Source: Candidatus Moraniibacteriota bacterium
GTDB taxonomy: Bacteria; Patescibacteriota; Minisyncoccia; Moranbacterales; UBA2206
Assembly: GCA_049303905.1 (NCBI GenBank)
Contig: JBAQNP010000005.1
Location: forward strand, 61,655-125,654
Reading direction: 5' to 3'
Length of the DNA: 64,000 nucleotides
The notes beneath the pieces were generated by a model. That model was given only the letters and a program-made list of their open reading frames with translations. It was not told where the DNA came from and did not search any database. This document shows, in pieces, positions 11,222-58,015 of this stretch (position 1 is its first letter; each line of letters starts with the position of its first letter). The position numbers were made by a program, and so were the translations under genes.

Positions 11222-11340
11222 TTTATCCCCCACCACTTCCGGGGCAAGGTTTTTTATAGGCAAAAATTTGATGCAAAGCATCGGCTACGCCTCTATTTTT
11301 ACCCCACAACAATCTTTTTGTAGAAGTGGTGGGGGATAAA
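11222..11340. repeat. Perfect 18-bp inverted repeat (TTTATCCCCCACCACTTC / GAAGTGGTGGGGGATAAA) flanking an 83-bp spacer; first copy of the C-rich palindromic element
   Basis: Read directly from the sequence. A second copy with the same ATCCCCCACCACTT core lies at 34647-34761. Confidence 0.8.
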
Positions 11341-13178: not shown

Positions 13179-13388
13179 TTCTTGCGAAGCATTAATCAAA
13201 TAGAGACACAGAGTCACTAAAGAATTAAATTTTTTTCAAAATTAAACTCGAACTCTTAATTTTATAACCAAAAATTGCCCTCAATCGACGGCTGCCAATG
13301 GAAATTTTTGGATAAAATTCGAGCTCTTAAACAAAAATTTTGTAAAAAAATTAATTCTTTAGTAGTTTGAATATAATTTTTAGAATTA

Positions 13389-13432
13389 TTCGTAGATTAG
13401 TATATTTGTATTTGATTAGTAATTCGTAAGTA
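13389..13432. repeat. ATTCGTA/TACGAAT-containing intergenic repeat; one member of a dispersed family
   Basis: attcgtagattagtatatttgtatttgattagtaattcgtaag. Related copies sit at 48551-48595 and 61014-61060 (reverse complement). Confidence 0.6.
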
Positions 13433-18853: not shown

Positions 18854-18955
18854 TGTCATTCCTGCGAAAGCAGGAATCTAGTGTAGAAACTTAGTGATTT
18901 GAGACTGGATTCCTGCTTTCGCAGGAATGACAATATACACAAGCCCTTCAGGAGG
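18854..18955. terminator. Cluster of GC-rich hairpins between convergent genes (bidirectional terminators)
   Basis: ATTCCTGCGAAAGCAGGAAT and ATTCCTGCTTTCGCAGGAAT together form an outer TGTCAT…ATGACA inverted repeat. A third hairpin is AGCCCTTCAGGAGGGCT. Confidence 0.6.
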
Positions 18956-25602: not shown

Positions 25603-27420
25603 TTATTCTTCATCAAACTCTTTCTTGGCTCTTTCAATTTCCAGCATTTGCGCTGGATCGGTGGTGATTATCTGGTCTTCGGAATAGGAAGCGACGACTT
25701 TAATGGCGACATGATTGGTGCCAGCGAAAAAAATTCCTTCTCCTACATTAGATTCAAGAAGTAGAAATTTTTCTTGATCAGTTAAATAGAATGTTTCGCT
25801 AATTACATCTACTGCTGCTGGAGATTGTTTTAGGAGTAGTTGAATAGAGGAGTTGGTGACAATGGCTTTGCCGTAGCGAGAACTCAAAAAATCATTAACG
25901 TCTTGAGTGACAGTAGTAAGCCCGGTATAATATTTTCGGCAACGCTTAGCGATTCCAAAAAGAAAAGAAGCAGCGTCATCATATTTCATCATTACCCAGG
26001 CTTCATCAGCTAAAACCAGTCTTTTTTTGAGAGTAGTTCTCATTTCATTCCAAATAAATTGCATTACCATATACATAGCAATCGGTCGGAGTTCTTCTTC
26101 CATATCGCGAATATTGAAAACCATCATCGGGTTGTCCACCACAACATTAGTAATATTATTTAGAAAACCGGAAAAAATTCCTTCTGTATATTTCTCCATG
26201 CGAATGGCTAAATTTTCTCCACCATCCATACTGCGCAAGATTTGATAGAGATCAGACATGGTTGGATAGGATTCTTTGGTAAGAGAATTAAAGTTTGTTT
26301 CAGCGGAAATATCTCGAACAGCATAAGTTTCTTTGATGGCTCGACCCAAAATCGAATCTTCTTCTGGGGTGATGTTACCAAGCATAATATGGAGTAGTCC
26401 CAAAAGATTAGCGATATTATTTCGTAATATATCTTCCGGATCTTCATCTTCTTTGATATGAGGAAGGTCAAATGGATTGATATGATTGTTTGAATTGAGA
26501 GAAATTTTTATAAAAGTTCCGCCCACTGTTTCACAAAGATGTTTATATTCATTTTCTGGGTCAATAATGATCACATCAGTTCCCATCATCAGCGAGCGAA
26601 GTACTTCCAGTTTTATGGTATAACTTTTTCCAGCGCCGGATTTAGCAAAAACTACCATATTGGCATTTTCCATTTTGAAGCGGTCAAAAATAATCAAACT
26701 ATTATTGTGACGATTTATTCCATAAAGAATTCCTTCATTGGAAGATAGGGTTGAGGAAACAAAAGGAAAAGTCGTGGAAAGCGGAGCGCTGTTCATACTG
26801 GAACCGATGTCCAGTTCATCATTAGCCAATGGCAAAGTTGAATTGAAACCTTGCTCAGATTTGAAAATGGCCGGTTTGACATAAACTAACTGAGCTTCCA
26901 AAATAGCTTCGATAGAACGAGTGATATCAGAAAGCTCTTTTTCATTTTCGCCGTAAGCGGTGATATAGAGTCCAAAGCGAAAAAACTTTTCTGTGCCTTG
27001 TTGCAAATTATTTCTAAGCTCATCGATATCTTGGATGGCAGTTTCAAGGGCGGGATCACGAATCATGCCTTTTTCTTGCTCGATATGAATTTGTGATTCA
27101 ACTCGGGTAGCATTTTTTTTGAGATCTTTCAAAATATCATAAGTTTCAATTGGATGGATAAACATTGAAATATCAATTGGCAAATCGATGTTTATAATGG
27201 GAGAAAACCAATTGCTATTGAGAAATCTTGGATAGGCCACCACAAAAATAGTCTGCGCCAGCGTTTCTCCAACGCGGATAAATTTCGGCATTATTTTTAT
27301 CGCAGCCGGAGCCAAAAGATCATTGAGACGCGAAACACCTTCCTGATAGTATTTTTCACCTTCAAGAATTTCGTTAGTTTTGGCTTGAGTGGTTGGGTTT
27401 TTTTTAAGAAAATTTAGCAT
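25603..27420 (-). CDS. VirB4/TrbE-like type IV secretion ATPase
   Basis: Walker A VVFAKSGAGKSYT. Walker B LVLADEAWVMMK. The C-terminal region resembles the AAA_10 / DUF87 family of conjugative VirB4 ATPases. Confidence 0.7.
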   Translation of the reverse strand: MLNFLKKNPTTQAKTNEILEGEKYYQEGVSRLNDLLAPAAIKIMPKFIRVGETLAQTIFVVAYPRFLNSNWFSPIINIDLPIDISMFIHPIETYDILKDLKKNATRVESQIHIEQEKGMIRDPALETAIQDIDELRNNLQQGTEKFFRFGLYITAYGENEKELSDITRSIEAILEAQLVYVKPAIFKSEQGFNSTLPLANDELDIGSSMNSAPLSTTFPFVSSTLSSNEGILYGINRHNNSLIIFDRFKMENANMVVFAKSGAGKSYTIKLEVLRSLMMGTDVIIIDPENEYKHLCETVGGTFIKISLNSNNHINPFDLPHIKEDEDPEDILRNNIANLLGLLHIMLGNITPEEDSILGRAIKETYAVRDISAETNFNSLTKESYPTMSDLYQILRSMDGGENLAIRMEKYTEGIFSGFLNNITNVVVDNPMMVFNIRDMEEELRPIAMYMVMQFIWNEMRTTLKKRLVLADEAWVMMKYDDAASFLFGIAKRCRKYYTGLTTVTQDVNDFLSSRYGKAIVTNSSIQLLLKQSPAAVDVISETFYLTDQEKFLLLESNVGEGIFFAGTNHVAIKVVASYSEDQIITTDPAQMLEIERAKKEFDEE

Positions 27421-27517
27421 AGTTTTTTTACGAACTACGAAATAAGTAAAATACGAAACGATTAAACTCCATTTTCGTACTTTCGTATTTAGTATTTATT
27501 TCGTAGTTCGTAAATGA
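27421..27517. repeat. TACGAA-rich hairpin element with an 18-bp perfect inverted repeat (TTACGAACTACGAAATAA … TTATTTCGTAGTTCGTAA)
   Basis: Read directly. It fills the whole spacer between the upstream gene's stop and the VirB4 start. Related to 28705-28797 and 43741-43855. Confidence 0.8.
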
Positions 27518-28240
27518 TTATTGTAATTCTAACTTTTCCACATCTTTTAATTCTGACGCATTGAAAATTTCTGGATTGTATGAATTGAACAGCAGTTCGA
27601 TGAGTTCTTCGGTTTTAAGTGGGGCAATGCGCAGTCCAATTCCAGAAAGAGCGGCGATTATATGGTCAACTCTTTGAAAAAGCTGATTTTTGTAAGTTTC
27701 AAAATTTTCATTTTTTTCGATGATGTTTTTTTGTGGGTTCATTAGACTGCCAATATTGGAAAAAAACCCTTTTCCAGTGTTTTCGATCGGAGAAAATGGA
27801 ATAATGATATAGAAATTCTTTTCCATAATATTGGAACCACTCACGAGTTGTTCAATGAAGCTTCTATATTCAGATAGTTGCAAGCGAAGAAGTTCGCTGG
27901 GCTGAGTTTTCTCTTTGCTAGTGACATAATCAAAATAATTTCGCATATCTAGTTTTCGCGAGCTCACTAGTATTTGTACAGGAAAATCTACCGAATTCAA
28001 GAAATTTTGATATTGATTAATGATGGCTTCTTGTTCTTGGGTTGATTTCAAATCAAAATTTATCGCTGACACAGCCAAAACGGAGCGCATAGCACCTGAT
28101 TTCAAAATGACCACATCATCTTTGACTTCTGCTACGTCCAAGTATTTTTGGGTTGGAGAAGATGATGGTTCAGTAGAGAGTTTTTTTGAGTGTAGAAATT
28201 CCATAGATATCTGAACCACATGATTCTCACTGATTAACAC
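27518..28240 (-). CDS. Hypothetical protein within the T4SS-like cluster
   Basis: 240-aa ORF, co-directional and tightly spaced with its neighbours. No recognisable family. Confidence 0.45.
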   Translation of the reverse strand: MLISENHVVQISMEFLHSKKLSTEPSSSPTQKYLDVAEVKDDVVILKSGAMRSVLAVSAINFDLKSTQEQEAIINQYQNFLNSVDFPVQILVSSRKLDMRNYFDYVTSKEKTQPSELLRLQLSEYRSFIEQLVSGSNIMEKNFYIIIPFSPIENTGKGFFSNIGSLMNPQKNIIEKNENFETYKNQLFQRVDHIIAALSGIGLRIAPLKTEELIELLFNSYNPEIFNASELKDVEKLELQ

Positions 28241-28308
28241 TTGATTGCATATGAATTAAAATTCAGTGAAATCAGGAAAATCATGTGATAATCAGTGGTT
28301 CTGATTTT

Positions 28309-28704
28309 TTATTTTCTGTTTAATATTTTTGTCAGTTCTTCTATCTTGCTATTATCCAAAACTTTTCTTTTGACAATAATTTCTTCTTTAGGTTTCTGGA
28401 TTTTTTTAGCTACTTTCATATTATCATAATATCGTTTCCAAACATAGACCTTAGGCTTGAGAAAAAAATTAACTCCAGACATTAGAAAATTGAGAAGTGG
28501 TTGGTTGTAGGGTCTATAGAAAGCTAGCGCGCCAAAAATTGCTAGAGTGATAACGGCTACAGGAAGAAAAGTAGAAAAAACCAGTGTGCTCCAAAAAATC
28601 AAAAGTAAAACGCCGGCAATTCCAAGCCAACCAAGTTGTTTGGCAGTAAGCGGACCGACAATCTTGTCCTCGATGTCGATGAATTGTGGTACGTTAAAAA
28701 GCAT
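28309..28704 (-). CDS. Small membrane protein, possibly a VirB3-like T4SS component
   Basis: 131 aa, two TM helices, a basic C-terminus. Positioned near the VirB4-like gene as VirB3 homologs are in Gram-positive T4SS. Confidence 0.35.
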   Translation of the reverse strand: MLFNVPQFIDIEDKIVGPLTAKQLGWLGIAGVLLLIFWSTLVFSTFLPVAVITLAIFGALAFYRPYNQPLLNFLMSGVNFFLKPKVYVWKRYYDNMKVAKKIQKPKEEIIVKRKVLDNSKIEELTKILNRK

Positions 28705-28797
28705 TTTGTGTGTATGGTTAATTATTTATTTACGAAAATACGAATTAAACTAAATTACGAATTCGTACTTTCGCTAGATTCGTATTTTCGTAAATGA
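28705..28797. repeat. TACGAA-rich hairpin element (TTACGAAAATACGAAT … ATTCGTATTTTCGTAA)
   Basis: 16-bp perfect inverted repeat. Its last ~15 nt (cgtaaatgattattg) are identical to those of the 27421-27517 element, and both abut a stop codon. Confidence 0.8.
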
Positions 28798-30159
28798 TTA
28801 TTGTTTATTCTTGAGGTTGACTATATTCCCCGGTGGCACATCGGTTTTTCGCATATTTTGCGAGGAAATTCGCATTGGCTGAGGCCCTGGATTAGGCAAT
28901 GGTTGTTGTATGGGTTGAATAGTCTGTTTTTCATAGGGCAATTTTTGCGGAGAACTGAAATTAATGTTGCCGGCATTTCTATTTTCGGTAGCCATTCTTT
29001 CTTCTTTGAAAATATCTTTTGGTTTTACTTCTTGTTTTTGAGAATTATAAACTTCTTGAATATTTCTTTGCGGTGTTTGGTAAATCACTCTTGGAGGTTC
29101 GACCTCCCTTTTGGAGGTCGAACCTCCATTGGAAACGGCTTGCTCGTGTCTTGAAAAAACTATTTGTTTTGTGTTCACATTAACATCCACCAAGGAATTT
29201 TCGTCATAAGCCTTTAAAAGAAAAGAAATTTTTTCACGGTCAGTTGAGTTCAAAACCTTGGCATTTTCATTGCGGAAAAGGTATGTTCCGCGATCCATGG
29301 CACTGTGTGATTCAAAACCGAGGCTGAAAGTGTAATCCGAAAGCCAATTACTGATTGATGGTCGCACCGGTTCTGGAAAATTTTTGAGTTTGATGCGCAT
29401 TGAAGTGACAAGTTGTTCACCAATTTCGGGAAATTTTTTGAGAGCGTCGGGAAGGAAGAGTTGTTCGATTTTTGTTTGTTCTTCCTGACTGTTAGAAATA
29501 GAGTTTTGAGGGATATAATTATGTAGGGTTTGGGGTTGTGGAGAAGAAAAATTCTGGGATGATTGATGATTGGAATTTAGAATTGCATCAAGTGTTGGTC
29601 CTGTAGCTGGTAAGGTAGTGACAAGCAAATAGTCATAAATATGAATAAACTCTTTGAGGCGACTTTTTTCAATAGGATTTAATGATATAGCATTTCGGTT
29701 GGTGTTTACGAAATCAACTGAAGCTGATAAATTTCTGGTTTTGATGTTATGATTTTTCTCAAATTCTGCTATCCATTCCGAGACTGTAAGCGATCCAAGT
29801 TTTTGTTGATTTTCCATAAGTGCTTGTTTGAGTTTTTGTCTGAGGGCATCACGAGGAATTTCTGGGACTAGAAATAATTTTACAGTCAATCTATTTTCCA
29901 TATCAATTTCTGCATCAAAAGAAGAAAGAAAATTATCTCTTAAAACTCTAGCTGTTTCTTCATCGGAAAGTTGTGGAATAGCGGTTAGATTAAGATAGAT
30001 GAGGATTTTTTGTAATTTCTCAAATAAGACAGGATTATTTTTTTGCACATTTTCTGACGCTAAAAAATCTCGCACATCCTTGATGAGTTTTTTTGCTTCC
30101 ACATCATCATAATGATGAATAGCATCATTCGAATTTTTTATAAAATCATTTGTTAACAT
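28798..30159 (-). CDS. Hypothetical protein within the T4SS-like cluster
   Basis: 453-aa ORF with no TM segment. The C-terminus is Gln/Pro-rich. Confidence 0.45.
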   Translation of the reverse strand: MLTNDFIKNSNDAIHHYDDVEAKKLIKDVRDFLASENVQKNNPVLFEKLQKILIYLNLTAIPQLSDEETARVLRDNFLSSFDAEIDMENRLTVKLFLVPEIPRDALRQKLKQALMENQQKLGSLTVSEWIAEFEKNHNIKTRNLSASVDFVNTNRNAISLNPIEKSRLKEFIHIYDYLLVTTLPATGPTLDAILNSNHQSSQNFSSPQPQTLHNYIPQNSISNSQEEQTKIEQLFLPDALKKFPEIGEQLVTSMRIKLKNFPEPVRPSISNWLSDYTFSLGFESHSAMDRGTYLFRNENAKVLNSTDREKISFLLKAYDENSLVDVNVNTKQIVFSRHEQAVSNGGSTSKREVEPPRVIYQTPQRNIQEVYNSQKQEVKPKDIFKEERMATENRNAGNINFSSPQKLPYEKQTIQPIQQPLPNPGPQPMRISSQNMRKTDVPPGNIVNLKNKQ

Positions 30160-30171
30160 AAAATATTTTAT

Positions 30172-32385
30172 CTATGGCTTAAAATTAGGATCATTTTTAA
30201 ATCCATCTACCCTTCTAATAAACTCATCAATTATTCCAGCTTGAGTTGGATTCGCAGTTCTAATTGAATTGGCGTGAGTTCGCATCTCAGGAATTTTTTG
30301 AGACATTCTATCAAAAAAATCTTTTCTGGCTCGGTTTAATTGACCTAATTCAGAAGGTGTCAGAGATTCAAGTTGCTTAAACCCAATTCCATGAATATTG
30401 CCAGTAGTTCCATCCGCATTTTGTTGTAAAAATGAATTCCAATGCCACAAGTCAGTTTTTGTTTGAGCTTTTATATTAGAAGCTTTTCCGGCTGCCATTG
30501 CAAATTGACCTGAATCAGCTCCTGTTGCTGGATCTAAATCGATATCTTCATTTTTTTGATATTTTCCTGTTTTTATATTAAACTTGCCCATTCCAAAGAG
30601 TTGAAAATTTCCTTTTCCGAATGAAATCTCTCCAATATCTGCTAATTGTTTTGCTGCTTGTTCTTTTGACATTCCTGATTTAGTTAATTGTGCGTATATT
30701 CTCTCCCTAACATTTGTTGGATCCATTGTATCTCCTTCTTCTTGCATAAAATCATTGAGATCATTATTTGATGCAATAATACGAAGTGTTGCTGACATTT
30801 TTTCATGATCACCAGCGCTTCTCGCCTTTTTGTATTCATTATAGAGATATCGAAAATCAGTACTAGTGCTTTGTAATTCCTTTTCTTTAGTGGCAATATT
30901 TCCTTGAATTGCAGTGTCTTTGAAATTTGTTTGCTCACCACTAATTTTATTTAATTTATCTCTCCATGATCCAGTAGCAATTTTGAAAGCTTTTCTTTCT
31001 TTTTCTGCTGTATTTTCTTTCCAGGCGGTTTTGAAAGCGGTTGGGCTTGCCCACCACATGTATTTGCTTTTTGCTAAGCCTCGATCTGTTTTTTTCAAAA
31101 GAGTAGACCCGCCCCATTTACCTGCCCTGACTGGCCAGTTCATGACTTTTTTCCCTTGACCGACTACCGCGCCTGCTCCGACAGCGCTCATTGATTGAGC
31201 GACGCCAATTCCCATCCAAAGAATAACGATTGGAATAGTGAAAAATGAAATACTAGCTATAAAATCTGGATTATCAGTTTGACTAGCGGCTATTTTTTGC
31301 ATAGAACCCATTCCACTTTTTCCAATCTCAGTCATCATTCCAGAGGCGATATACATCATAAATAGCATTATTGGCCCAAAAAAAGCATAATTGAAAAGTT
31401 TTTTCCACCAATCTGAGGCATAGGAAGAAAGTTGTGGAATGGCAGCTCCGACAAAAGCCAGAGAAGAAAAAATAATGAGTATTGCTAATGCAATTGTTCG
31501 CAAAACAAAGAGAACGGTGATAGTTACTATGGTTACGGCAAAGATAAAAACAAAAATAACAGCTGCAAGTAAGTATGTTGAATCAAAGGAACCAATTTCA
31601 TTATGAATAATTTCTGGTAATTTAGCAGCGCCAGCAAAATCAACCATTGTTCTTGCGCCATTGATTCCAAGGGCATCGGCAAAATAAAACATCATCACAT
31701 TAGAAACATCAATAATGAAGCGAGAAATAGGAAAGCTAAAATTGACTAAAAGTGCCATAATCACAATCCATAACAATGTTTTTTTGTAATTATATTTGTC
31801 AACTTGAAAAACAGTAGCAAAAGCGCTAAAAAGCAAAAACATAATAAATGAAACATTAAGCACATCGCGGACCATTGTCCAAGCATTATAAACGGAATTA
31901 TTGTTTATAACAGCAGTGACATTTTCTGGTTTCATTATCCATTCAAAAAGAGAAGCCGCAGATTCCATTAGCCATACCATGAGATTTAACAACATAAGCA
32001 GAGTACAATTCATGATGTTTTTACTAAATTCAGGGAGCGTACAAGAATCTGGACTAGGGTTAAGGGTAGTAGATGCACTATTATAGTTGCCAAGGCCAAT
32101 ATTAGAATCGGAATTGTCATCAAATGCACAATTGTCGGAAGCAACATTTTTAGCTTTGCACAAATCTTGACATTTTGCTTGTGTGACATTTTCTCCTAAT
32201 GGAGTATTTATAACATCAACTCTTTCGAAACAGTCTCCGAGAGGTTCTTCTGCTTTTGCCTTCTCCCCTTTCCCAAACCCAAAACCAATCACCAATATAA
32301 AAATGATAGCTAGTAAAATTTTGCGGGGATTTGTTTTTATGTGTGTTTGTTGGGACATGTATCTTATAAAATTTTCAATTTTCAA
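30172..32385 (-). CDS. Large polytopic membrane protein, VirB6/TrbL-like candidate
   Basis: Signal peptide. A Cys-containing extracytoplasmic domain. About 7 TM helices centrally. A C-terminal soluble domain. This topology is typical of Gram-positive VirB6 homologs. Confidence 0.4.
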   Translation of the reverse strand: MKIENFIRYMSQQTHIKTNPRKILLAIIFILVIGFGFGKGEKAKAEEPLGDCFERVDVINTPLGENVTQAKCQDLCKAKNVASDNCAFDDNSDSNIGLGNYNSASTTLNPSPDSCTLPEFSKNIMNCTLLMLLNLMVWLMESAASLFEWIMKPENVTAVINNNSVYNAWTMVRDVLNVSFIMFLLFSAFATVFQVDKYNYKKTLLWIVIMALLVNFSFPISRFIIDVSNVMMFYFADALGINGARTMVDFAGAAKLPEIIHNEIGSFDSTYLLAAVIFVFIFAVTIVTITVLFVLRTIALAILIIFSSLAFVGAAIPQLSSYASDWWKKLFNYAFFGPIMLFMMYIASGMMTEIGKSGMGSMQKIAASQTDNPDFIASISFFTIPIVILWMGIGVAQSMSAVGAGAVVGQGKKVMNWPVRAGKWGGSTLLKKTDRGLAKSKYMWWASPTAFKTAWKENTAEKERKAFKIATGSWRDKLNKISGEQTNFKDTAIQGNIATKEKELQSTSTDFRYLYNEYKKARSAGDHEKMSATLRIIASNNDLNDFMQEEGDTMDPTNVRERIYAQLTKSGMSKEQAAKQLADIGEISFGKGNFQLFGMGKFNIKTGKYQKNEDIDLDPATGADSGQFAMAAGKASNIKAQTKTDLWHWNSFLQQNADGTTGNIHGIGFKQLESLTPSELGQLNRARKDFFDRMSQKIPEMRTHANSIRTANPTQAGIIDEFIRRVDGFKNDPNFKP

Positions 32386-32492
32386 TTATCAAATATCTCT
32401 GGTTTGAAATTTTTTACTTAAAAATTCATTGAAAATTGAAAACTGAAGCTTGTTTTTGTATTTTGTTCGTTTCATTCGCATGTGGTTCGCCC

Positions 32493-32533
32493 GCCTCGAC
32501 TCGCGGAGACCGCTTGTCGACGCGAGGCGGGTA
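32493..32533. repeat. GC-rich ~42-bp palindromic element (CCCGCCTCG…GTCGACG…CGAGGCGGG)
   Basis: It stands out in an AT-rich genome. Near-identical copies at 43778-43819 and 60967-61013 (reverse complement). Confidence 0.75.
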
Positions 32534-32551
32534 GATTTGCGTCGCTATATA

Positions 32552-34646: not shown

Positions 34647-34761
34647 GTTTATCCCCCACCACTTTTAGTTTTGTTTATTTTAATTAAATTCATTAAATTA
34701 ACTAAAAGGGTTTAAATTTACATTTTTATACAAAAATCTCATAAACTAAAAGTGGTGGGGG
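34647..34761. repeat. Second copy of the C-rich palindromic element (ATCCCCCACCACTTTTAG … CTAAAAGTGGTGGGGGAT)
   Basis: 18-bp perfect inverted repeat around a 75-bp AT-rich spacer. Preceded by TGTGGATAA (34637-34645). Lies in a divergent promoter region. Confidence 0.8.
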
Positions 34762-34810
34762 ATTTGCTCTGGGGGTGTACTTTTTCAAAATTATTTGCTA
34801 GATTTAGATT

Positions 34811-36492: not shown

Positions 36493-37368
36493 TTAATCTT
36501 GAGATTGCTTCGCTTTGCTCGCAATGACAGGTAGGGAGTTGGCTATTTTTTTCCAATCCTCCACGCTTAGTTCTTGTGCTCTTTGTTTTGGCGTAATGCC
36601 AATTTTTTTTAGTTTTTCCTCTACTTCTTTTTTGTCTAATTTGAGACTAGCGGATAAATTATTGACCAGTGTTTTTCTTTTAGACGAAAATCCCGCCTTA
36701 ACAATTCTAAAAAAATTCCCAGCCCCCTTTTCTTTAGTAAGGGGAATGGTTGTGGACGAGGTAGTGGATTGAAAAGGAGTAATTTTTATCACTGCCGAAT
36801 CCACTTCTGGCACTGGAAAAAAACTTTCTTTGTCAACATAAAATAGTAATTCCGGCTTGGCATAGTATTGCACACTTACAGCTAGAATACTCATTTGTCC
36901 GGGATTACTACAAATACGCTCCGCTACTTCCTTTTGCACCATCAGAATCATTTCACTTGGTGGAAACTTAGTTTCTAGAAAGAGTTGGATAATGGGCGAA
37001 GTAATATAATATGGAATATTGGCAACAACTTTGTAATGAATTGTGCCACCTTCTCCTTTGTAAGGAGAGGGGCTGGGGGTGAGGTTTGAAATGATTTCTG
37101 GCAAATTAATTTTTAAAATATCAGCATTTATTATTTCTATTTTTTTACTATCCTTATATTGTTTTTTTAATTTATTAGCCAGAGCTCCATCAACCTCGAT
37201 AGCCAAAACCTTGCCAGCATGCTTAAATAATTTTTCCGTGAGCACACCTTTTCCTGGTCCAATTTCAATTACAAAATTGTCCGATTTTAAGTTGGCGGAT
37301 TGAATAATTTTTTCTAAAACAGTTGTATCTCTTAGAAAATTTTGTCCTAAAGATTTTATTGGTTTCAT
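36493..37368 (-). CDS. rsmA: 16S rRNA (adenine1518/1519-N6)-dimethyltransferase RsmA/KsgA, carrying an in-frame palindromic insertion
   Basis: SLGQNFL, EIGPGKGVLT and NIPYYITSPI are KsgA motifs. The segment LTPSPSPYKGEGG is encoded by the ~40-bp GC-rich palindromic element at 37048-37088. Confidence 0.85.
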   Translation of the reverse strand: MKPIKSLGQNFLRDTTVLEKIIQSANLKSDNFVIEIGPGKGVLTEKLFKHAGKVLAIEVDGALANKLKKQYKDSKKIEIINADILKINLPEIISNLTPSPSPYKGEGGTIHYKVVANIPYYITSPIIQLFLETKFPPSEMILMVQKEVAERICSNPGQMSILAVSVQYYAKPELLFYVDKESFFPVPEVDSAVIKITPFQSTTSSTTIPLTKEKGAGNFFRIVKAGFSSKRKTLVNNLSASLKLDKKEVEEKLKKIGITPKQRAQELSVEDWKKIANSLPVIASKAKQSQD

Positions 37369-40874: not shown

Positions 40875-42404
40875 TTATTCCGTCTTAAAGCGGTATTGCA
40901 AGGCTTCGGCGATGTGGGTGGGGGAAATTTTTTCGGAACTTTCGAGATCGGCGATGGTGCGGGCGACTTTGATGATGCGATAATAGGCGCGGGCGCTCAG
41001 GTGAAAATTAGAAACCGCTTTTTTCATAAGTTCCAATGATTCAGGCGTAAGGCGACAGAAATTTTTTATTTGTTCACTGCCCATTTCGCTGTTGGAAATA
41101 GTTTGAGATCCGGAAAATCTTTCTTTTTGAATAGCGCGAGCTTTTTCGACGCGAACTCGGATGTCGCAAGATTTTTCTCCAACAGTGGCATCTTCAGAAA
41201 GTTTTTCAAATTTGATGCGCGGGACTTCGACATGGAGATCGATTCTGTCCATAATCGGTCCGGAAATTTTTCGTTGATATTTTATGATGGAAGCCGGATT
41301 GCAGACACAAGTTTTTTCCGGATCAGTGGCATTGCCACAAGGGCAGGGATTCATTGCGGCGATCAAAGTAAACCTCGCTGGAAATTCCATTGTGCCTTGG
41401 GCGCGAGAAATTGTTATTATTCCATCTTCCAGTGGTTGTCTCAAATTTTCCAAAACATTGCGAGAGAATTCAGGGAATTCATCCAGAAACAATATTCCAC
41501 GATGTGAAAGGCTGATTTCTCCAGGGCGAGGAAAGGTTCCTCCACCAACCAAAGAAACGGAAGAAGCACTGTGATGTGGGGAGCGAAACTGACGTTTGGT
41601 GATGAGTGAGTCGGAACGTTTTAGTTGTCCGGCAATGGAAAATATCTTTGTCACTTCCAAAGCTTCGGGAATGGTGAGTTTGGGCAAAATCGAAGACATG
41701 GTTTTGGCGAGAAGGGTTTTTCCACTTCCCGGTGGGCCGTTCAAAATCACATTATGTCCTCCGGCAGCCGCAATTTCAAGCGCGCGTTTAGCATGTTCTT
41801 GTCCGCGAACGTGTGACATATCCACAAGATAATCATCATAGGAAAAAAGTTCCTCCAGATTTATTTTTTCCGCGGGAATAATTTTTTGTTCTCCGGAAAG
41901 ATGATCAATAAGTTCAATGAGAGTACTTACTGGAAAAATTTCTACGCCAGAAATGACAGAAGCTTCGCCGATATTGTCCTTGGGGATATATAATTCTTTG
42001 ATATTTTTTTCTTTGGCTAAAATTGCCATTGGAAGCACACCTTTGATTGGTCTGACTTTTCCATCCAGCGACAATTCTCCTAGGAATATTTTGTCTTTGA
42101 AATCAAAGGTCAATTGATCAGTGGCTAAAAGAAAACCAAGGGCGATTGGCAAATCATAAATCGGACCTTCTTTTTTGAGATCAGCCGGAGCCAAATTGAC
42201 AGTGACGCGTCCAGCGCGATGCGGTGGCAAGAATCCAGAATTTCGAATAGCGGCGCTCACACGATCGCGAGATTCTTTGATGGCGGTATCAGGCAGTCCA
42301 ACAATATTGAATTGATGAAGACCAGCGCTGACTGTGTCTGCTTCCACTTCGACGAGCTCGCTTTTGAGTCCGATTGTTGCGGCCGAAAAAACTTTTGAAG
42401 ACAT
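40875..42404 (-). CDS. YifB/ComM-family Mg-chelatase-like AAA+ ATPase
   Basis: The N-terminal Lon-like domain (…ESRDRVSAAIRNSGF…) plus the Walker A site GPPGSGKT match. Start placed at MSSKVF; the longer ORF-track start lies inside CATGAAR repeats. Confidence 0.8.
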   Translation of the reverse strand: MSSKVFSAATIGLKSELVEVEADTVSAGLHQFNIVGLPDTAIKESRDRVSAAIRNSGFLPPHRAGRVTVNLAPADLKKEGPIYDLPIALGFLLATDQLTFDFKDKIFLGELSLDGKVRPIKGVLPMAILAKEKNIKELYIPKDNIGEASVISGVEIFPVSTLIELIDHLSGEQKIIPAEKINLEELFSYDDYLVDMSHVRGQEHAKRALEIAAAGGHNVILNGPPGSGKTLLAKTMSSILPKLTIPEALEVTKIFSIAGQLKRSDSLITKRQFRSPHHSASSVSLVGGGTFPRPGEISLSHRGILFLDEFPEFSRNVLENLRQPLEDGIITISRAQGTMEFPARFTLIAAMNPCPCGNATDPEKTCVCNPASIIKYQRKISGPIMDRIDLHVEVPRIKFEKLSEDATVGEKSCDIRVRVEKARAIQKERFSGSQTISNSEMGSEQIKNFCRLTPESLELMKKAVSNFHLSARAYYRIIKVARTIADLESSEKISPTHIAEALQYRFKTE

Positions 42405-42441
42405 AAATTCATGAAACATGAAGCATGAAACACGAAACAAT

Positions 42442-42897
42442 CTAGTTTAATTTTTGTTTCATGTTACATGTTATATGTTGCGTGATTAATATGATTATTC
42501 CTATTGTAATATAAATATCTGCGAAATTAAATATGGGCCAGAATTTTAGGTCGATAAAATCGATGACACAACCGAAGTGGAGCCTGTCAATAATATTAGC
42601 TATTGCTCCTGATAAAATTAACAAAAATGAAATAGATGGTATTACTTTAAAATTTTCAATTTTCAATTTACAATTTTCAATGAATTTTTTAATGTTCAAT
42701 TTTAAATGATAAATAAAAAATATTAAAAGTATAAAAGCTATTATAATAAAAAGATAATTAAATTTTAATCCAAAAGCCAAATTTTCATTGCAAATATAAA
42801 ATCCGCTTTTAGTGCGGATGATATATTTTGAAATCTGATCAAGCGAAATTAGAAATAAAAAACAAACAGTATAAATTATTTTTTTATATTTCCCCAT
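42442..42897 (-). CDS. lspA: Lipoprotein signal peptidase (signal peptidase II)
   Basis: 151 aa, 4 TM helices, the conserved FNFADIYITIG region. Confidence 0.75.
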   Translation of the reverse strand: MGKYKKIIYTVCFLFLISLDQISKYIIRTKSGFYICNENLAFGLKFNYLFIIIAFILLIFFIYHLKLNIKKFIENCKLKIENFKVIPSISFLLILSGAIANIIDRLHFGCVIDFIDLKFWPIFNFADIYITIGIIILITQHITCNMKQKLN

Positions 42898-43333: not shown

Positions 43334-43717
43334 TCAAAGACTGGGAATATGTTTTATTTTAGCTTCATTTGTTTCTTTATTTATCCAGACAGAAATAGCA
43401 TCAAAGCGGTAAGGCGCATTATGTAGATTTTTTGTGCGCAGGTAGACACTGGCAATTTTGTCGAGTTTTTTGAGTTTGGTGTAGGTAATATTCTCTTCCG
43501 GCAAAGTATTTTTATATTTTTCATATCCCCTAGTTTTGACTTCCACAAAAACAATTTCACCATTTTTCAATTCTTTGGCTATAATATCAATTTCTCCCAA
43601 TCTTCGGCCAAGATTATTTTGAAAATTGCGATCCAAAATTTTGTAGCCATTATTCTGTAGAAATTTGACGGCGGCATCTTCTCCGAGATTGCCTAAATTT
43701 TTAGTTTCAGTAGTCAT
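43334..43717 (-). CDS. YraN-family (UPF0102) endonuclease-like protein
   Basis: LGEDAAVKFLQNNGYKILDRNF…GEIDIIAK…VFVEVKTR is the YraN signature. Confidence 0.7.
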   Translation of the reverse strand: MTTETKNLGNLGEDAAVKFLQNNGYKILDRNFQNNLGRRLGEIDIIAKELKNGEIVFVEVKTRGYEKYKNTLPEENITYTKLKKLDKIASVYLRTKNLHNAPYRFDAISVWINKETNEAKIKHIPSL

Positions 43718-43740
43718 GAATATATTATAACAGATTTATA

Positions 43741-43855
43741 ATTTACGAAAATACGAATTAAACTAAATTACTAATTCGCCCAGCCTCGACTCGCGAAGAC
43801 GCTCGTCGACGCGAGGCGGGTACTTTCGCTAGATTCGTATTTTCGTAAGGATAAC
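43741..43855. repeat. Composite repeat: a TACGAA hairpin element (as at 28705-28797) interrupted by the GC-rich 42-bp palindrome
   Basis: The outer ~75 bp align almost base-for-base with 28721-28797. The inner block 43778-43819 matches 32493-32533. Confidence 0.8.
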
Positions 43856-45977: not shown

Positions 45978-46127
45978 TTTGTTAAAAAATAATTTTTATT
46001 TTATTGAAATATTATTTGTAGATTCGCATCGCTATTATTATTTTACAATAGATTTGAAAATTTGGGAAATGGGATATTTTAAAATTAAAAAGCGGAGAGT
46101 GATTATTGCATCACCTCCGCTTTTTTT

Positions 46128-46215
46128 ATTTGTCATGCTGAATTTATTTCAGCATCTCTTCTTTAGATCCTGAAACCCGCCTGCCGGCGAGGCATGGCAA
46201 GTTCAGGATGACAAG
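46128..46215. terminator. Nested-hairpin terminator element (TGTCATGCTGAA…TTCAGCATCT…ATCCTGAAC…GTTCAGGATGACAA) downstream of pnp
   Basis: A second copy lies at 57951-58015. This copy also carries a GC-rich palindrome insert (CCGCCTGCCGGCGAGGC). Confidence 0.65.
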
Positions 46216-48395: not shown

Positions 48396-48594
48396 ACTTA
48401 AAAGTTAAATACTGAATTGTGGCTTTGAGTGGCTTTTCTTTAGCCTTGGGCGTGATTTTAAATTACTTAATTATTGTTAAAATTCTAGCTTATTTTAGGG
48501 GTTTTGTCAATTTTTTTAGGAAAAATAAAAAAACGGAGCATAATCCGTTTTTTGTATATTCGTATATTTGTAATAGATTAGTAATTCGTAAAGT

Positions 48595-51190: not shown

Positions 51191-54100
51191 ATGCATGAAA
51201 TATTGGAAAAACTTAATGCTCCGCAAAGAGAGGCGGTGACGACGACGGAAGGGCCGGTTCTCATTATTGCGGGGGCAGGATCGGGGAAAACGCGCGCACT
51301 AACACACAGGGTGGCGTATTTGATTTGTGAAAAAAAGATTAGTCCTCGAAGAATTTTGGCGGTGACTTTTACTAATAAAGCGGCGGGAGAGATGAAGGAA
51401 AGGATTAGGGAATTACTTAGTGCAAATACGCGAATTGATGCGAATGATGCGAATGACCTCACCCCCAGCCCCTCTCCTTATAAAGGAGAGGGTAGCCAAT
51501 ATGATATGCCAACAGTCGGAACTTTTCATTCTATCTGCGTGAGGATTTTGCGTCATGAGATTGAGAAGATGGGATATAAAAGCTCTTTTAATATTTTTGA
51601 TGATCAAGATCAGCTGGCTCTCATGAAAAAAGTGATGAAAGAAATGGAAATTAACACCGATCAATTCAAACCAAAAGCAATTCTTGGCGCAATTTCCAAT
51701 GCGAAAAATGAACTCAAGAGTGCGGAGGAATTTTTAGCAGGAGTGGGTGGATATTTTGAAGAGATGGTGGCCAAGATTTATCTGAACTATCAAAAAAAAT
51801 TGAAAGATCAAGGTGCTTTGGATTTTGATGATATCTTGATGATTATAGTGAAGCTTTTCCAAAAGTTTCCAGAAGTTTTGGAAAAGTATCAGAATTTTTT
51901 TCAGTATATTATGGTAGACGAATATCAAGATACTAACCGCGCGCAATATTTGTTGGTAAAATTGTTGTCGGAAAAATATAAAAATTTGTGTGTGGTGGGT
52001 GATGATTGGCAATGTTTTCCGAGGGGAATAAAAATATCAGTGGATGACAAAAAAACCAAAAATATTGAGAAAATAAGAAAAGGAGATGCAATTATGTCAG
52101 CTTCAGGGCAAGGTGAGATTTGCCCTCAATCGATAGAAAGAAATAAAAAATCTAAATTCAAGGGAGAGCTAATAAAAATCACGACAAAATCAGGTAAAAG
52201 TTTAATGGCTACACCTAACCATATTCTTTTTTCTAAATTATCTTTAAGCGCAAATATATTCTATGTATATTTAATGTATAAAAAAGAGATAGGATATCGT
52301 ATTGGAATGGTAAAGGGAATTAGGATAGTTAAATCAAATGGACTTAATGCGGGATTAAATGTCAGGGCTAATCAAGAACGAGCAGACAGGATGTGGATTT
52401 TGAAAATTTGCCAGACAAAAACCCAAGCGCAATACTGGGAGCAATATCTTGGATTTTTTTATGGTATTCCGACGTTGGTTTTTATTGCGGGCAGTGGAAG
52501 AAAAATGAAATTTGAGCAAAAATATTTGGATGATTTGTATAAAAATATTAATACCTTAGAAAGAGTTAAGAAAATATTTTTAGATTTTAATTTAAATTTT
52601 GATTATCCTCATCATATTCCGCAATCAACCATAAGAAGTGGAATAAAAAGAGTTTCTGTTAACTTTACTTTATTTAGCGATCGCAGAAAAGGAATTTCAA
52701 TTAGCAATTGGGGAAGACACAGGATAAGCATTAATTCGAATGACAAAGAGACTAAAAAAATACTAGAGTTAGCTGGTTTCAAAACGAGAAAAGGAAAGAA
52801 GAATGATTGGCGATTGGAAATTTCTAGCAGAAAATATGAGGAAATGGAAAAGGTTCTAAATAAAATTATAAAAATTATTCCTAATATAGTGGTCACCAAA
52901 AGAGCGCTCTTAGCGGGAGGCAAAAGATTTTATTTTCAACCGGCGGGACATATCAGAGAAACAATGCTCGTGCCTATTTTAGAAAAAGGAAAAATTATTG
53001 AAGAGGAGATAGAAAAAGTTGAAAAAATAAAATATGCTGGTCCGGTTTATGATTTAGATGTAGCAAATGTGCATAATTATATTGCAAATAATTTTGTGGT
53101 GCATAATTCAATTTATGGATGGCGAGGAGCCAATATTCAAAATATTTTAGATTTTGAAAAAGATTATCCGCAGGCGCGCGTGATTAAGTTGGAGCAGAAT
53201 TATCGCTCGACGCAAAATATTTTAGACGCGGCTTATGGTGTGATTTCAAAAAACATTAATCGCAAGGACAAAAAAATTTGGACGGATAATCAAAGCGGGC
53301 ATCTTCTTTCTAGTTTTGAAGCAGAAGATGAAAAAGAAGAAGCACAGTTTATTGTGGATGAGATAAAAAAAATATGTCATCCTGAACTTGTTTCAAAATC
53401 TAATGAGGAGATTCCGGATCAAGTCCGGAATGACAAATACAGATTTTCCGATTTTGTAGTTCTCTATCGAACCAATGCGCAGTCTCGAATGATTGAAGAA
53501 GCGATGCTTCGAAATTCTATTCCGTACCGAATTATTGGCGGGGTAAAATTCTACCAAAGAAAAGAAATTAAAGATGTGATTGCATATCTGCGAGTGATTA
53601 ATAATTTTAATGATGAAACTTCGCTGGAACGAATTATTAATGAACCGAAGCGAGGGATAGGCGATGTAACACTGAGCAAGTGGATAAAAATAGCTCGATT
53701 AGATGAAAATAATTTAATAGATGCAGGGATTAAAATTAAACAGTTGCAAGATACAAAATACAAGATACAAGATACAAGACTGGATGCAATTGTGAAATTT
53801 TGCGAATTCATTCAGAGAATGTCAGAGCTCAAAGAAAAATTATCTCTTACTGATTTTATCCAAAAAATTTATAGTGAATCGGGGTATGAAAGATTTCTTA
53901 TGGACGGAACTGAAGAGGGAGAAATGAGAAATGAAAATGTTAGAGAGCTTCTCACTGTTGCAAAGAAATATGACGAGTATGAACCAATGGAAAGTTTGAA
54001 ATTATTTTTAGAAGAAGTAGCTTTGGTTTCTGACACGGATAATATTGATCAAGCTGTTGATGCGGTACATCTTATGACACTTCACAGTGCTAAAGGTTTA

Positions 54101-54577
54101 GAATTTAAAATTGTTTTTATTGCTGGGCTCGAAGAAGGGATTTTGCCACATTCCAGAAGTATGCTTAGCGACTCTGAAATGGAAGAAGAGAGACGCCTGA
54201 TGTATGTGGGAATCACGCGCGCTATGGAAAAAGTCTATTTGCTTTTTACTCGTATGCGAAATATTTTTGGTTCCACACAGATTAATGCTTCTTCAAGATT
54301 TTTGGAAGATGTGCCGGAGCATCTACTTGAGTCATATAACATGAAGCATGAAACATGTAACAAAAAACAAAGTGATAAGATTAGGCAAGGTTCGGAAAAA
54401 AATGCTTCATGCTTCATGCTTCATGCTTCATGTTTTAAGGACGGTGATCGGGTGCGACATGAGGTTTTTGGTGATGGCTTGATTGTTGCGAGTCAAGGCG
54501 ACATAATCACCGTCGCCTTTTCCAAGGCGGGACTCAAAAAACTTTCTACTTCAATCGCACACTTAGAAAAAATATAA
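51191..54577 (+). CDS. pcrA: ATP-dependent DNA helicase PcrA/UvrD, interrupted by an intein and carrying an in-frame palindromic insertion
   Basis: Walker A AGAGSGKTR. Motifs Ia, II (DEYQD) and IV-VI are present. Motif III reads VVGDDWQ|intein|SIYGWRGA. The N-terminal insert TPSPSPYKGEG is encoded by the palindromic element. Confidence 0.85.
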   Translation: MHEILEKLNAPQREAVTTTEGPVLIIAGAGSGKTRALTHRVAYLICEKKISPRRILAVTFTNKAAGEMKERIRELLSANTRIDANDANDLTPSPSPYKGEGSQYDMPTVGTFHSICVRILRHEIEKMGYKSSFNIFDDQDQLALMKKVMKEMEINTDQFKPKAILGAISNAKNELKSAEEFLAGVGGYFEEMVAKIYLNYQKKLKDQGALDFDDILMIIVKLFQKFPEVLEKYQNFFQYIMVDEYQDTNRAQYLLVKLLSEKYKNLCVVGDDWQCFPRGIKISVDDKKTKNIEKIRKGDAIMSASGQGEICPQSIERNKKSKFKGELIKITTKSGKSLMATPNHILFSKLSLSANIFYVYLMYKKEIGYRIGMVKGIRIVKSNGLNAGLNVRANQERADRMWILKICQTKTQAQYWEQYLGFFYGIPTLVFIAGSGRKMKFEQKYLDDLYKNINTLERVKKIFLDFNLNFDYPHHIPQSTIRSGIKRVSVNFTLFSDRRKGISISNWGRHRISINSNDKETKKILELAGFKTRKGKKNDWRLEISSRKYEEMEKVLNKIIKIIPNIVVTKRALLAGGKRFYFQPAGHIRETMLVPILEKGKIIEEEIEKVEKIKYAGPVYDLDVANVHNYIANNFVVHNSIYGWRGANIQNILDFEKDYPQARVIKLEQNYRSTQNILDAAYGVISKNINRKDKKIWTDNQSGHLLSSFEAEDEKEEAQFIVDEIKKICHPELVSKSNEEIPDQVRNDKYRFSDFVVLYRTNAQSRMIEEAMLRNSIPYRIIGGVKFYQRKEIKDVIAYLRVINNFNDETSLERIINEPKRGIGDVTLSKWIKIARLDENNLIDAGIKIKQLQDTKYKIQDTRLDAIVKFCEFIQRMSELKEKLSLTDFIQKIYSESGYERFLMDGTEEGEMRNENVRELLTVAKKYDEYEPMESLKLFLEEVALVSDTDNIDQAVDAVHLMTLHSAKGLEFKIVFIAGLEEGILPHSRSMLSDSEMEEERRLMYVGITRAMEKVYLLFTRMRNIFGSTQINASSRFLEDVPEHLLESYNMKHETCNKKQSDKIRQGSEKNASCFMLHASCFKDGDRVRHEVFGDGLIVASQGDIITVAFSKAGLKKLSTSIAHLEKI
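52013..53107 (+). mobile_element. Intein (365 aa) inside pcrA motif III, with a central endonuclease-like region
   Basis: Starts at Cys1 (CFPRG…). Block B TPNH. C-terminal blocks VYDLDVANVHNYIANNFVVHN followed by +1 Ser. Excision restores the canonical GDDxQSIYGWRGA. Confidence 0.8.
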
Positions 54578-54617
54578 AAAAAGTAGAATGTAGAAAGTAT
54601 AATGTATAAAGTAATTA

Positions 54618-54648
54618 AAAAATCCCCCCTCGGGGATTTTTTAATTTG
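54618..54648. terminator. Rho-independent bidirectional terminator (AAAAAATCCCCCCTCGGGGATTTTTT)
   Basis: Read directly. It lies between the convergent pcrA and the LysM-CHAP gene. Confidence 0.75.
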
Positions 54649-54659
54649 TGTATTTTGCT

Positions 54660-54700
54660 TACTACTTCCTACTTCCTACTTCCTACTTCCTACTTTCCAC
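54660..54700. repeat. Heptamer tandem array (TACTTCC)x5
   Basis: cttcctacttcctacttcctacttcctactttccactt. An imperfect inverted counterpart (GTAGAAA/GTATAAA)n lies at 54585-54615, on the other side of the terminator. Confidence 0.8.
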
Positions 54701-57052: not shown

Positions 57053-57126
57053 GGGTGTTTAGCTCAGCTGGTTAGAGCGTCACATTGACATTGTGGAGGT
57101 CACTGGTTCGAGTCCAGTAATACCCA
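57053..57126 (+). tRNA. tRNA-Val (anticodon GAC)
   Basis: Manual cloverleaf fold. Acceptor GGGTGTT/AATACCC (one G·U pair). D arm GCTC/GAGC. Anticodon arm TCACA-TTGACAT-TGTGG. T arm ACTGG-TTCGAGT-CCAGT. Confidence 0.7.
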
Positions 57127-57214
57127 CAGCATAAGAAATATGATAGAGTTAAAGAGTCGAGAAAGTACATTTAAAAAGATAATGGGACCATAGCTCAGTG
57201 GTAGAGCGCGCGGC

Positions 57215-57920: not shown

Positions 57921-57950
57921 TCTGGAATAATATAATTTTGTCATGCTGAA

Positions 57951-58015
57951 CTTGTTTCAGCATCTTAATCGTTAGAGATCCTGAAACGAGTTCAGGATGA
58001 CAATCGAAGATTAAT
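57951..58015. repeat. Second copy of the TGTCATGCTGAA…GTTCAGGATGACAA nested-hairpin element
   Basis: It aligns with 46128-46215 minus the GC-rich insert. Confidence 0.75.

Follow-up and report, generated by a model that had tools for sequence, protein, structure and literature searches.

The DNA analysed here is a stretch of 64,000 nucleotides (nt) of contig JBAQNP010000005.1 from a Candidatus Moraniibacteriota bacterium (hereafter the window), with a GC content of 35% and with a gene cluster resembling those of type IV secretion systems (T4SSs). Our subject is a group of hairpins, built from TACGAA units, that sit between the genes of this stretch. Three of them, designated E1, E2 and E3, are related AT-rich hairpins occupying stop-to-start spacers on the minus strand, which also encodes the genes around them. 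E1 (27421-27517, 97 nt) takes up the whole gap between the stop codon of an open reading frame (ORF) for a TraC-like protein of 240 amino acids (aa; 27518-28240) and the ATG of the gene for a VirB4-like ATPase (25603-27420, 605 aa). E2 (28705-28797, 93 nt) takes up the whole gap between the 453-aa ORF upstream of it (p453, 28798-30159) and the downstream PrgI-family (VirB3-like) gene (28309-28704, 131 aa). E3 (43738-43852) lies upstream of a UPF0102/YraN-like gene (43334-43717). The VirB4-like protein matches PF19044 (TraG P-loop), AAA_10 and TraC_F_IV, and the orthologue of the TraC-like ORF in L001 (L numbers denote loci outside the window) matches PF26593 (TraC-like). There are hundreds of homologues of the VirB4-like protein, with 80-97% identity among the best 120 of these, and the annotations of the named ones read Candidatus Moranbacteria, Parcubacteria or Patescibacteria. 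The relatives examined show synteny across the gene cluster.

The three elements can be aligned over their full length, beyond the arms alone. The hairpin core of E1 (27427-27514) consists of a perfect outer stem of 19 base pairs (bp), formed by the inverted repeat TTTACGAACTACGAAATAA, and of inner stems made of TACGAA units. The core of E2 (28728-28795) has a perfect outer stem of 18 bp (ATTTACGAAAATACGAAT) and the central palindrome TACGAATTCGTA, and is followed by an A/C-rich, unstructured tail (28705-28727; coding strand, AAATAAATAATTAACCATACACACAAA) that fills the space up to the PrgI ATG. The core of E3 (43743-43848), with a perfect inverted repeat of 16 bp, is split: an arm distal to the yraN-like gene (43821-43852, the 5′ half on the coding strand) and an arm proximal to it (43738-43778, the 3′ half) are separated by a GC-rich palindrome of 42 nt (43779-43820), and without this palindrome E3 equals E2 at 64/65 positions. 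A preliminary description of this DNA had placed the two hairpins correctly in the gaps upstream of the VirB4-like and VirB3-like genes and had recognized the split third copy, as well as the perfection of the repeats and a shared end at the upstream stop codon. Its lengths need revision, with stems of 19 and 18 bp (E1 and E2) in place of 18 and 16, and a common end of 18 nt (ACAATAATCATTTACGAA on the coding strand) in place of 15, of which 6 (CAA TAA) are the last codon and stop of the upstream genes. The core it proposed for searches, TTACGAANNACGAA, matches E1 but neither E2 nor E3, because the spacing of the units differs: TTACGAA-N-TACGAA in E1, TTACGAA-NN-TACGAA in E2 and E3. TACGAA occurs 39 times in the window, against 26.8 expected, and 17 of the 39 occurrences are inside E1-E3. 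As coding-strand RNA, the elements fold at -33.1 (E1), -27.7 (E2) and -49.9 kcal/mol (E3), with z-scores of -6.8, -7.1 and -6.3, respectively, and 0/200 shuffles fold as well. Searches with Rfam 15, at gathering and at permissive thresholds, returned no relevant family for the elements. E2 has a chance-level match (E = 0.11) to a plant miRNA model, and the gathering score is reached in the window only by a tRNA and a group I intron.

Comparison with relatives indicates that the hairpins come and go. Six genes of the cluster were mapped and five junctions measured in 80 GTDB species loci (Moranbacteria), where ORFs are simple longest-ORF calls and where the mapping of outer junctions is less reliable in distant relatives. 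Three length classes of spacers can be distinguished (<=30, 60-260 and >260 nt); at the E1 junction between the TraC-like and VirB4 genes (J1), the spacer is <=30 nt in 46/78 species and 60-260 nt in 29/78. About half of the mid-size spacers (52/100) fold at z < -3 against mononucleotide shuffles, mostly at the three junctions that connect the p453, PrgI, TraC-like and VirB4 genes. The five closest genomes (L006-L010) share 87-91% nt identity in VirB4, yet have different occupants at the same three junctions. At J1, where the window has E1, L006 has an E2-type element, L007 has a third TACGAA variant, and L009, L010 and L008 have 4 nt each (AACT, GTCT and ATTC), the spacers of these last three and of L004 being 4-7 nt. 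At the p453-PrgI junction (J2), E2 is present in the window and in L009, unrelated hairpins in L006 and L007, a 130-aa gene in L010, and 1 nt in L008. Filled and empty versions of J1 can be read directly against each other, as the window has CAATAA-TCATTTACG...CGTAAAAA-AACT-ATG where L009 has CAATAA-AACT-ATG. Judged from this clean comparison of filled and empty sites, E1 and E2 are lineage-specific insertions and no conserved part of the operon. In L010 (= L001; 9240-9310) and L004 (8430-8500), the last codons and the stop of the upstream gene come from a hairpin arm (e.g. ...GATCAATGAACAATGAACAATAA), and therefore insertions can remodel C-termini.

The same hairpins recur at other sites. The E2 hairpin is identical (66/66 nt) at J2 of the window, at J2 of L009 and at a different junction, J1, of L006, and the genes that flank these identical copies are only 72-90% identical. 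A homologue of the A/C-rich tail of E2 accompanies the copies in L006 and L009, and this tail has diverged. One variant is found at three operon junctions in L007, with one copy split, as E3 is, by the GC palindrome, and L015 and L020 each have their own hairpin variant at three junctions. E1 has 17 close homologues on other contigs, and its own nhmmer match has E = 4.7e-10. A metagenome scan for two TACGAA units, a gap of 30-60 nt and two inverted units yielded at least 120 stretches, with 117 distinct elements among the matches listed and in unrelated gene contexts, all of these counts being biased lower bounds as the set was ascertained by the TACGAA-arm pattern. The elements are thus not unique to the window; uniqueness, coupled with a lack of transcript discontinuity, was what the preliminary description had named as weakening a regulatory-family interpretation. 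The family is widespread in metagenomes. The contigs that bear the listed elements mostly have 33-48% GC. Nearly all listed elements with two neighbours (96 of ~105) sit between co-directional ORFs; 40/85 begin <=5 nt from the upstream stop and 70/85 end <=30 nt from the next start, with the ATG sometimes overlapping the last bases of the stem (e.g. GTTCGTAAATG). Both orientations relative to transcription are found (24 vs 14). A profile hidden Markov model (HMM) of one subfamily hits 189 sites in 2.4 Mb of loci, and several unrelated heptamer families coexist within one genome. In L191, which is an spc ribosomal-protein operon (L14, L5, S8, L6, L18, S5, SecY, Adk, Map), hairpins occur in 11 junctions, and therefore strong transcriptional polarity is excluded.

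One member of the family resides in an rRNA gene. L198 carries 23S and 5S rRNA genes and has a TACGAA hairpin of ~100 nt (1176-1283) between positions 1218 and 1219 of the Rfam large-subunit (LSU) rRNA model. The insert lies in the terminal loop of a hairpin that directly precedes GGUAGGGAAGCGUUC (GGUAGggGAGCguuc in the Rfam consensus); we take this hairpin to be helix 45 of 23S rRNA, the classical site of intervening sequences (IVSs). A profile built without L198 matches this insert at E = 9.8e-13, its left arm agrees with the operon element of L007 at ~31/34 nt by eye, and the insert folds together with the base of helix 45 at -66.8 kcal/mol. Two more copies follow the 5S gene, before an ORF. 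As a separate observation, the 23S gene of L198 also contains, within the region 3560-4560, an insertion of ~0.5 kb that encodes a LAGLIDADG-type protein (LAYIAGFLDGDGSL...) and precedes a sarcin-ricin-loop-like motif; in this locus, the match to the Rfam LSU model was reported as ending at 3559.

IVSs take the place of the terminal loop in helix 45 or helix 25 of 23S rRNA and may be ORF-less and AT-rich, as in Salmonella, Yersinia and Campylobacter, or encode S23p, as in Coxiella and Leptospira. The TACGAA elements resemble them in being extended stem-loops with terminal inverted repeats and in being sporadically present among close relatives. The IVS of Coxiella is located in helix 45, has a 28-bp terminal stem and tandem GACAGAT heptamers that vary in number between strains, contains an S23p ORF and is excised by RNase III (PMC4990558). 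At the level of the architectural class, tandem heptamers by the stem and, optionally, a loop ORF for a four-helix-bundle (S23p) protein would be further points of likeness (PMC4990558). One TACGAA family member itself sits in the helix-45 loop of a 23S gene. The difference is one of location and content, in that E1-E3 and most other members lie in mRNA stop-to-start spacers and have no ORF. By location, then, E1-E3 are not IVSs, though they share homology with one. How rRNA IVSs arose and how they move was still called unclear when more than 25 years had passed since they were discovered (PMC4990558).

Hairpins of the same architecture can also enclose a small gene. Gene-size inserts at junctions J2, J3 and J5 encode either a four-helix-bundle protein (TIGR02436; PF05635, '23S rRNA IVS protein') or a GxxExxY protein (TIGR04256; PDDEXK_3), and those between p737 and p453 encode a protein of ~131-137 aa that is unrelated to these and matches no NCBIfam family. 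All GxxExxY or four-helix-bundle genes in the loci (23/23) are flanked by inverted arms of tandem 7-8-nt repeats, and in L010, L015, L020, L021, L022, L034 and L035 these arms are of the same type as the genome's own ORF-less hairpins. The arms nearest to TACGAA are those of L015 (TCGAAT/TACGAAT) and of L020 and L106 (TACAAAA). These 23 cassettes with heptamer-array arms, together with the matching ingredients of the Coxiella IVS, would place the TACGAA elements in a class of IVS-type hairpin cassettes, of which they are the putative ORF-less form; strict TACGAA arms were seen on none of the cassettes. We know of no description of GxxExxY genes as alternative IVS cargo.

The GC-rich palindrome nested in E3 (CCCAGCCTCGACTCGCGAAGACGCTCGTCGACGCGAGGCGGG) appears to be an element of its own kind, inserted at TTCG^TA in the centre of its host. 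A second copy in the window (32490-32531) lies in the spacer 32386-32551 with the flanks TTCG and TA, and a third (60967-61011) has the flanks TA and CGAA and lies beside a degenerate TACGAA-type stretch (61016-61059). An 11-mer seed finds ~20 copies of this palindrome (CCCGCCTCGACTCGCGGAGAC...GTCGACGCGAGGCGGG, 42-45 nt) in the loci, with L007, L020, L088, L106, L107, L180 and L182 among the carriers. About 15 of the ~20 copies, including all three in the window, are exactly at TTCG^TA (= TA^CGAA), and thus the palindrome targets the repeat unit of the TACGAA hairpins.

We consider it likely that E1-E3 are ORF-less copies of a dispersed, fast-turnover family of AT-rich palindromic insertions in Candidatus Moranbacteria and related Patescibacteria, which are of the IVS type, selfish and tolerated. 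Each arm consists of a few TACGAA(N1-2) units in a row, with the arms inverted and either strand able to fold as a hairpin of 70-95 nt. Copies lie directly behind a stop codon and a few nt ahead of the next start, inside co-transcribed operons, and their insertion leaves no duplication. Being essentially selfish, the elements would survive only where the transcript hairpin is harmless, and would be tolerated as non-terminators. Two ways in which such a hairpin could be harmless suggest themselves. A ribosome that terminates at the base of the stem may melt it and expose the adjacent start, keeping stop-start translational coupling; the 1-7-nt spacers of relatives imply a coupling that melting of the stem would preserve. 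Alternatively, RNase III may cut the long stem (18-19 perfect pairs plus inner helices), as it does in rRNA IVS stems, and we think that the co-transcribed hairpin is probably cut in this way. No RNase III signature (rnc) was found in six-frame translations of all DNA examined, which covers a small fraction of each genome. The nested GC palindrome would be another small element, with the TTCG^TA unit as its target. Larger cassettes of the same architectural class carry a four-helix-bundle (S23p) or GxxExxY (PD-(D/E)XK-type) gene in the loop.

Several observations weigh against this reading. No target-site duplication (TSD) was detected among 107 elements, where the flanking repeat is 2.60 nt against 2.54 +/- 0.10 nt for shuffled partners, and no transposase or autonomous partner was found in the loci examined. 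There is no gene-bearing cassette with strict TACGAA arms among the 23 cassettes and the 2.4 Mb of loci, and no pair of TACGAA arms 280-1600 nt apart in the same 2.4 Mb, the latter being a weak negative as the loci had been collected for other reasons. The E2 hairpin is 100% identical between copies though its flanks differ by 10-28% (P ~2e-4 per pair at 0.88 identity per site), and this identity, with a diverged tail, could reflect purifying selection for a host function in place of recent spread. All 18 members of the E1 subfamily have invariant arms, and a TACGAA unit in these that is unpaired in the consensus fold is likewise 100% conserved, which points to sequence recognition by a protein. 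RNase III cleavage and translational coupling are both inferred, and the metagenome set has the ascertainment bias mentioned above.

The lack of duplications also bears on the suggestion, made in the preliminary description, that the elements form a family of miniature inverted-repeat transposable elements (MITEs). A dispersed insertion family is borne out by the empty junctions, by E2 at the other junction of L006 and by the at least 120 metagenome stretches; the perfect outer arms of 16-19 bp, the dispersed copies and the presence/absence polymorphism are likewise MITE features. The other hallmarks, a TSD and a cognate element with a transposase, are lacking in the material examined, and the filled junction of the window, set against the empty one of L009, shows no TSD either. 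Of the two options in the preliminary description, the MITE family comes near the truth, and an intra-operon regulator finds no support.

An alternative that we regard as unlikely is that the hairpins are host-beneficial RNA elements kept by selection, acting as processing sites (for RNase III or another enzyme) or 3′-end stabilisers that segment polycistronic mRNA and tune how stable, or how well translated, adjacent cistrons are relative to each other, in the manner of repetitive extragenic palindromes (REPs), their bacterial interspersed mosaic elements (BIMEs) and enterobacterial repetitive intergenic consensus (ERIC) sequences. Such a role would account for copies that always lie in transcribed stop-to-start spacers, for long perfect stems (z ~ -7), for 11 copies in a single spc operon and for the complete conservation (100%) of the E2 hairpin beside a tail and neighbouring genes that have diverged; the 23S member, moreover, sits in helix 45, where IVS stems are known RNase III substrates (PMC4990558). 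Transcript processing, one of the roles named in the preliminary description, is plausible solely by analogy with rRNA IVSs, which RNase III cuts. Other results speak against a host-beneficial role. Sense strands fold no better than antisense strands (39 vs 47, Wilcoxon p = 0.26), and both orientations are present. No compensatory covariation occurs in the 18-member E1 subfamily, in which the arms are invariant and the loops variable, and the single variable position of the outer stem (columns 11/85) appears as a one-sided change in five copies. Complementarity of the inner arms within an element (0.70) is the same as identity between elements (0.69), and in close relatives spacers of 1-7 nt suffice. 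No test supports a structure specific to the sense RNA. The unit is conserved even when unpaired and without covariation, so it is the sequence of the unit itself that is conserved and not merely its pairing. Together with the lack of duplications, this conservation is more in keeping with recognition by a protein (which might be a recombinase, nuclease or host factor) than with selection for an RNA fold.

Recognition of DNA is also at the heart of a second alternative, in which the TACGAA units are operator- or iteron-like binding sites of a regulator for the T4SS-like cluster and other operons. The conserved unit (with the invariant unpaired copy in all 18 E1-type members), its repetition at 7-8-nt spacing on both arms and the perfect palindrome in the centre of E2 would suit such an array, and a protein operator was among the roles proposed in the preliminary description. 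We find it improbable, as some near relatives have the elements and others lack them, as copies occur inside a gene for 23S rRNA and also behind one for 5S rRNA, and as several unrelated heptamer families are found in one genome. No promoter-like site is associated with the arrays, a location between translationally coupled genes is ill-suited to a promoter-proximal operator, and a unit-recognising transposase or nuclease would likewise account for the conservation.

It is most improbable that the hairpins act as intrinsic terminators or attenuators and divide the cluster into separate transcription units, although the hairpins are strong and intergenic and although intra-operon attenuation had been suggested. 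An intrinsic terminator has a GC-rich stem and then a U-tract; here the stems are AT-rich, and behind them the coding strand has A-runs or the ATG and no T-run (E1 continues with AAAAAAACT). A scan for promoters and terminators has no hit in the elements, with counts in the region equal to the shuffle expectation. Copies sit between nearly all gene pairs of the essential spc operon, and both orientations occur. That the hairpins arose independently and de novo, by slippage and template switching in AT-rich spacers and without copying between sites, might explain arms of tandem 7-8-nt repeats (a typical product of slippage) and the many different unit sequences, but is scarcely credible and already contradicted by the 66/66-nt identity across different junctions and species, besides the 18 E1-type copies with invariant arms in unrelated contexts and the clean insertion boundaries against empty sites.

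The elements can be placed among other known repeats. They would work in the way of IVSs and of co-transcribed hairpins of the MITE type, such as Correia elements, ERIC sequences and the palindromic elements of Rickettsia. The Correia elements of Neisseria and the ERIC sequences (intergenic repeat units, IRUs) of enterobacteria are co-transcribed MITE-like hairpins, imperfect palindromes of ~100 nt with many copies that are often inside operons. Correia hairpins are RNase III substrates with 26-bp terminal inverted repeats and a TA duplication. Likewise, the TACGAA elements are dispersed, ~100-nt imperfect palindromes within operons and transcribed with the flanking genes. They differ in having no duplication, in arms that are arrays of 6-nt units, in being flush with stop and start codons, in belonging to another phylum and in unrelated sequence. 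REPs, including BIMEs and the REPINs (paired REPs) with their REP-associated tyrosine transposases (RAYTs), are extragenic palindromes without target duplications that lie between co-transcribed genes and can stabilise upstream mRNA. REPs measure 20-40 nt, are GC-rich and have a 5′ tetranucleotide that is conserved, whereas a TACGAA element is AT-rich, made of repeated units and 70-95 nt long; it is the nested 42-nt GC palindrome that comes closer to REPs. This palindrome also has an analogue in the GC clusters of yeast mitochondria, short GC-rich palindromes that insert into the AT-rich spacers of a compact genome, although these belong to another domain of life and have unrelated sequences, and the palindrome described here targets the hexamer TTCG^TA.

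Rickettsia palindromic elements (RPEs) are small selfish palindromes of a reduced genome, found in RNA genes and near or in protein genes. A comparable choice of unusual but tolerated sites is seen in the window, where a hairpin of the same class as E1-E3, with CATGAAA/CATGAAG units (54326-54440), lies inside the ORF of an 1128-aa UvrD/PcrA-like helicase (51191-54577). Its sequence reads in frame as ~35 residues (SYNMKHETCNKKQSDKIRQGSEKNASCFMLHASCF), ~45 residues before the C-terminus of the helicase ORF, and resembles the in-frame insertions of RPEs. E1-E3, in contrast, are intercistronic and not in-frame, and their sequences are unrelated to RPEs. The TAACTGA heptanucleotide repeats of Beggiatoaceae, cyanobacteria and Bacteroidetes are tandem arrays placed right in front of start codons, most of which lack a Shine-Dalgarno sequence; they overlap or abut upstream stops, have a patchy distribution that suggests horizontal spread, and have no known function (PMC4679880). 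These repeats and the short tandemly repeated repetitive (STRR) sequences of cyanobacteria are similar to the TACGAA elements in that tandem 7-nt units abut start codons and upstream stops and are patchily distributed, but TAACTGA arrays are direct repeats strongly biased toward the start, whereas TACGAA arrays are inverted pairs in both orientations. Integron attC sites were considered and rejected, since the ends TTTACGAA...TTCGTAAA by inspection misfit the RYYYAAC...GTTRRRY cores and the flanks are syntenic core genes (VirB4 cluster, spc operon). Searches of the literature turned up no account of such elements from Patescibacteria and hardly anything on GxxExxY proteins.

Other spacers in the window contain further hairpins, of which those at 32372-32442 and 42404-42470 are of the same class with different units. 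The spacer from the PrgI-family gene to the TraC-like gene (28241-28308, minus strand) has a degenerate hairpin of another family, the TCAGAACCACTGATTATCAC type, of which L006 has full copies of 92-103 nt at J2 and J3; in L008, the PrgI/TraC-like junction is -1 nt. A hairpin of TTTTCAAT repeats with a 15-bp stem lies at 32372-32442, and L001 and L007 have a GxxExxY gene cassette at a position of the cluster that appears comparable. A hairpin of CATGAAA units (42404-42470) marks the junction between lspA and a Mg-chelatase-like gene. There, the mechanical call of ORF 40875-42440 puts a TTG start (42440) in the hairpin arm, an example of how gene callers extend ORFs into such arms. The same problem arises at 32385, and the real starts of the Mg-chelatase-like and 737-aa genes probably lie further downstream. 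Stretches of ~44 nt at 13386-13429, 48548-48591 and 61016-61059 (TTACGAAT...TACAAATATACTAAT.TACGAAT) have TACGAA-type ends and no hairpin; the one at 13386 stops 4 nt short of an ATG and resembles the GATTAGTAATTCGTAAAGAT-ATG tails that follow hairpins in L097, L104 and L178.

Further palindromes and RNA features were also observed. The spacer 54578-54700 between convergent genes contains a hairpin that is terminator-like in both directions (AAAAAATCCCCCCTCGGGGATTTTTT) and has inverted arrays of GTAGAAA/CTTCCTAC units on its flanks. Additional GC-rich palindrome families are present in the window at 18854-18932 (TGTCATTCCTGCGAAAGCAGGAATC), at 37045-37085 and 51456-51496 (CCTCTCCTT..AAGGAGAGGGGCTGGGGGTGAGGT), and at 46127-46215, 53363-53440 and 57927-58005 (TGTCATGCTGAA..CCTGAAAC..GTTCAGGATGACA), and sequences like these are found at cluster junctions in L009, L016, L029, L036, L040, L053, L060 and L064. 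The spacers 11222-11340 and 34651-34763 have inverted repeats of 18 and 21 bp with a common core, ATCCCCCACCACTT, near gene starts. A group I intron (RF00028, 81.7 bits) at 57605-57819 lies ~390 nt downstream of an apparent tRNA 5′ half (~57184-57214, GGGACCATAGCTCAGTGGTAGAGCGCGCGGC), and the two together may be a tRNA split by an ORF-containing intron; the only tRNA that ARAGORN calls is tRNA-Val at 57053-57127.

These findings show one repeat family in three settings, namely the helix-45 loop of a 23S rRNA, the region after a 5S gene, and dozens of stop-to-start junctions in protein operons. For intergenic hairpins of the candidate phyla radiation (CPR) that look conserved, this means that filled and empty sites should be compared before they are called regulators. 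The family offers a natural system for studying IVS-type elements as mobile DNA, and it suggests a role for the four-helix-bundle/S23p and GxxExxY families, both of them very widespread and made up of small, uncharacterised proteins, as cargo of such hairpins. We would tentatively go further, to an idea that is possible though rather doubtful: 23S IVSs could be the rRNA-resident tip of a larger class of TSD-less hairpin cassettes, made of inverted arrays of 6-8-nt units with an optional S23p or GxxExxY gene, that home to the stop-start junctions of Patescibacteria operons. Each protein lineage would then recognise its own unit and mediate mobility, and the hairpin would keep translational coupling or be removed by RNase III. 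If true, this would explain the origin of IVSs, the function of two abundant 'hypothetical' families and the GC palindrome at TA^CGAA. The TACGAA family itself may in any case help to explain where rRNA intervening sequences come from.

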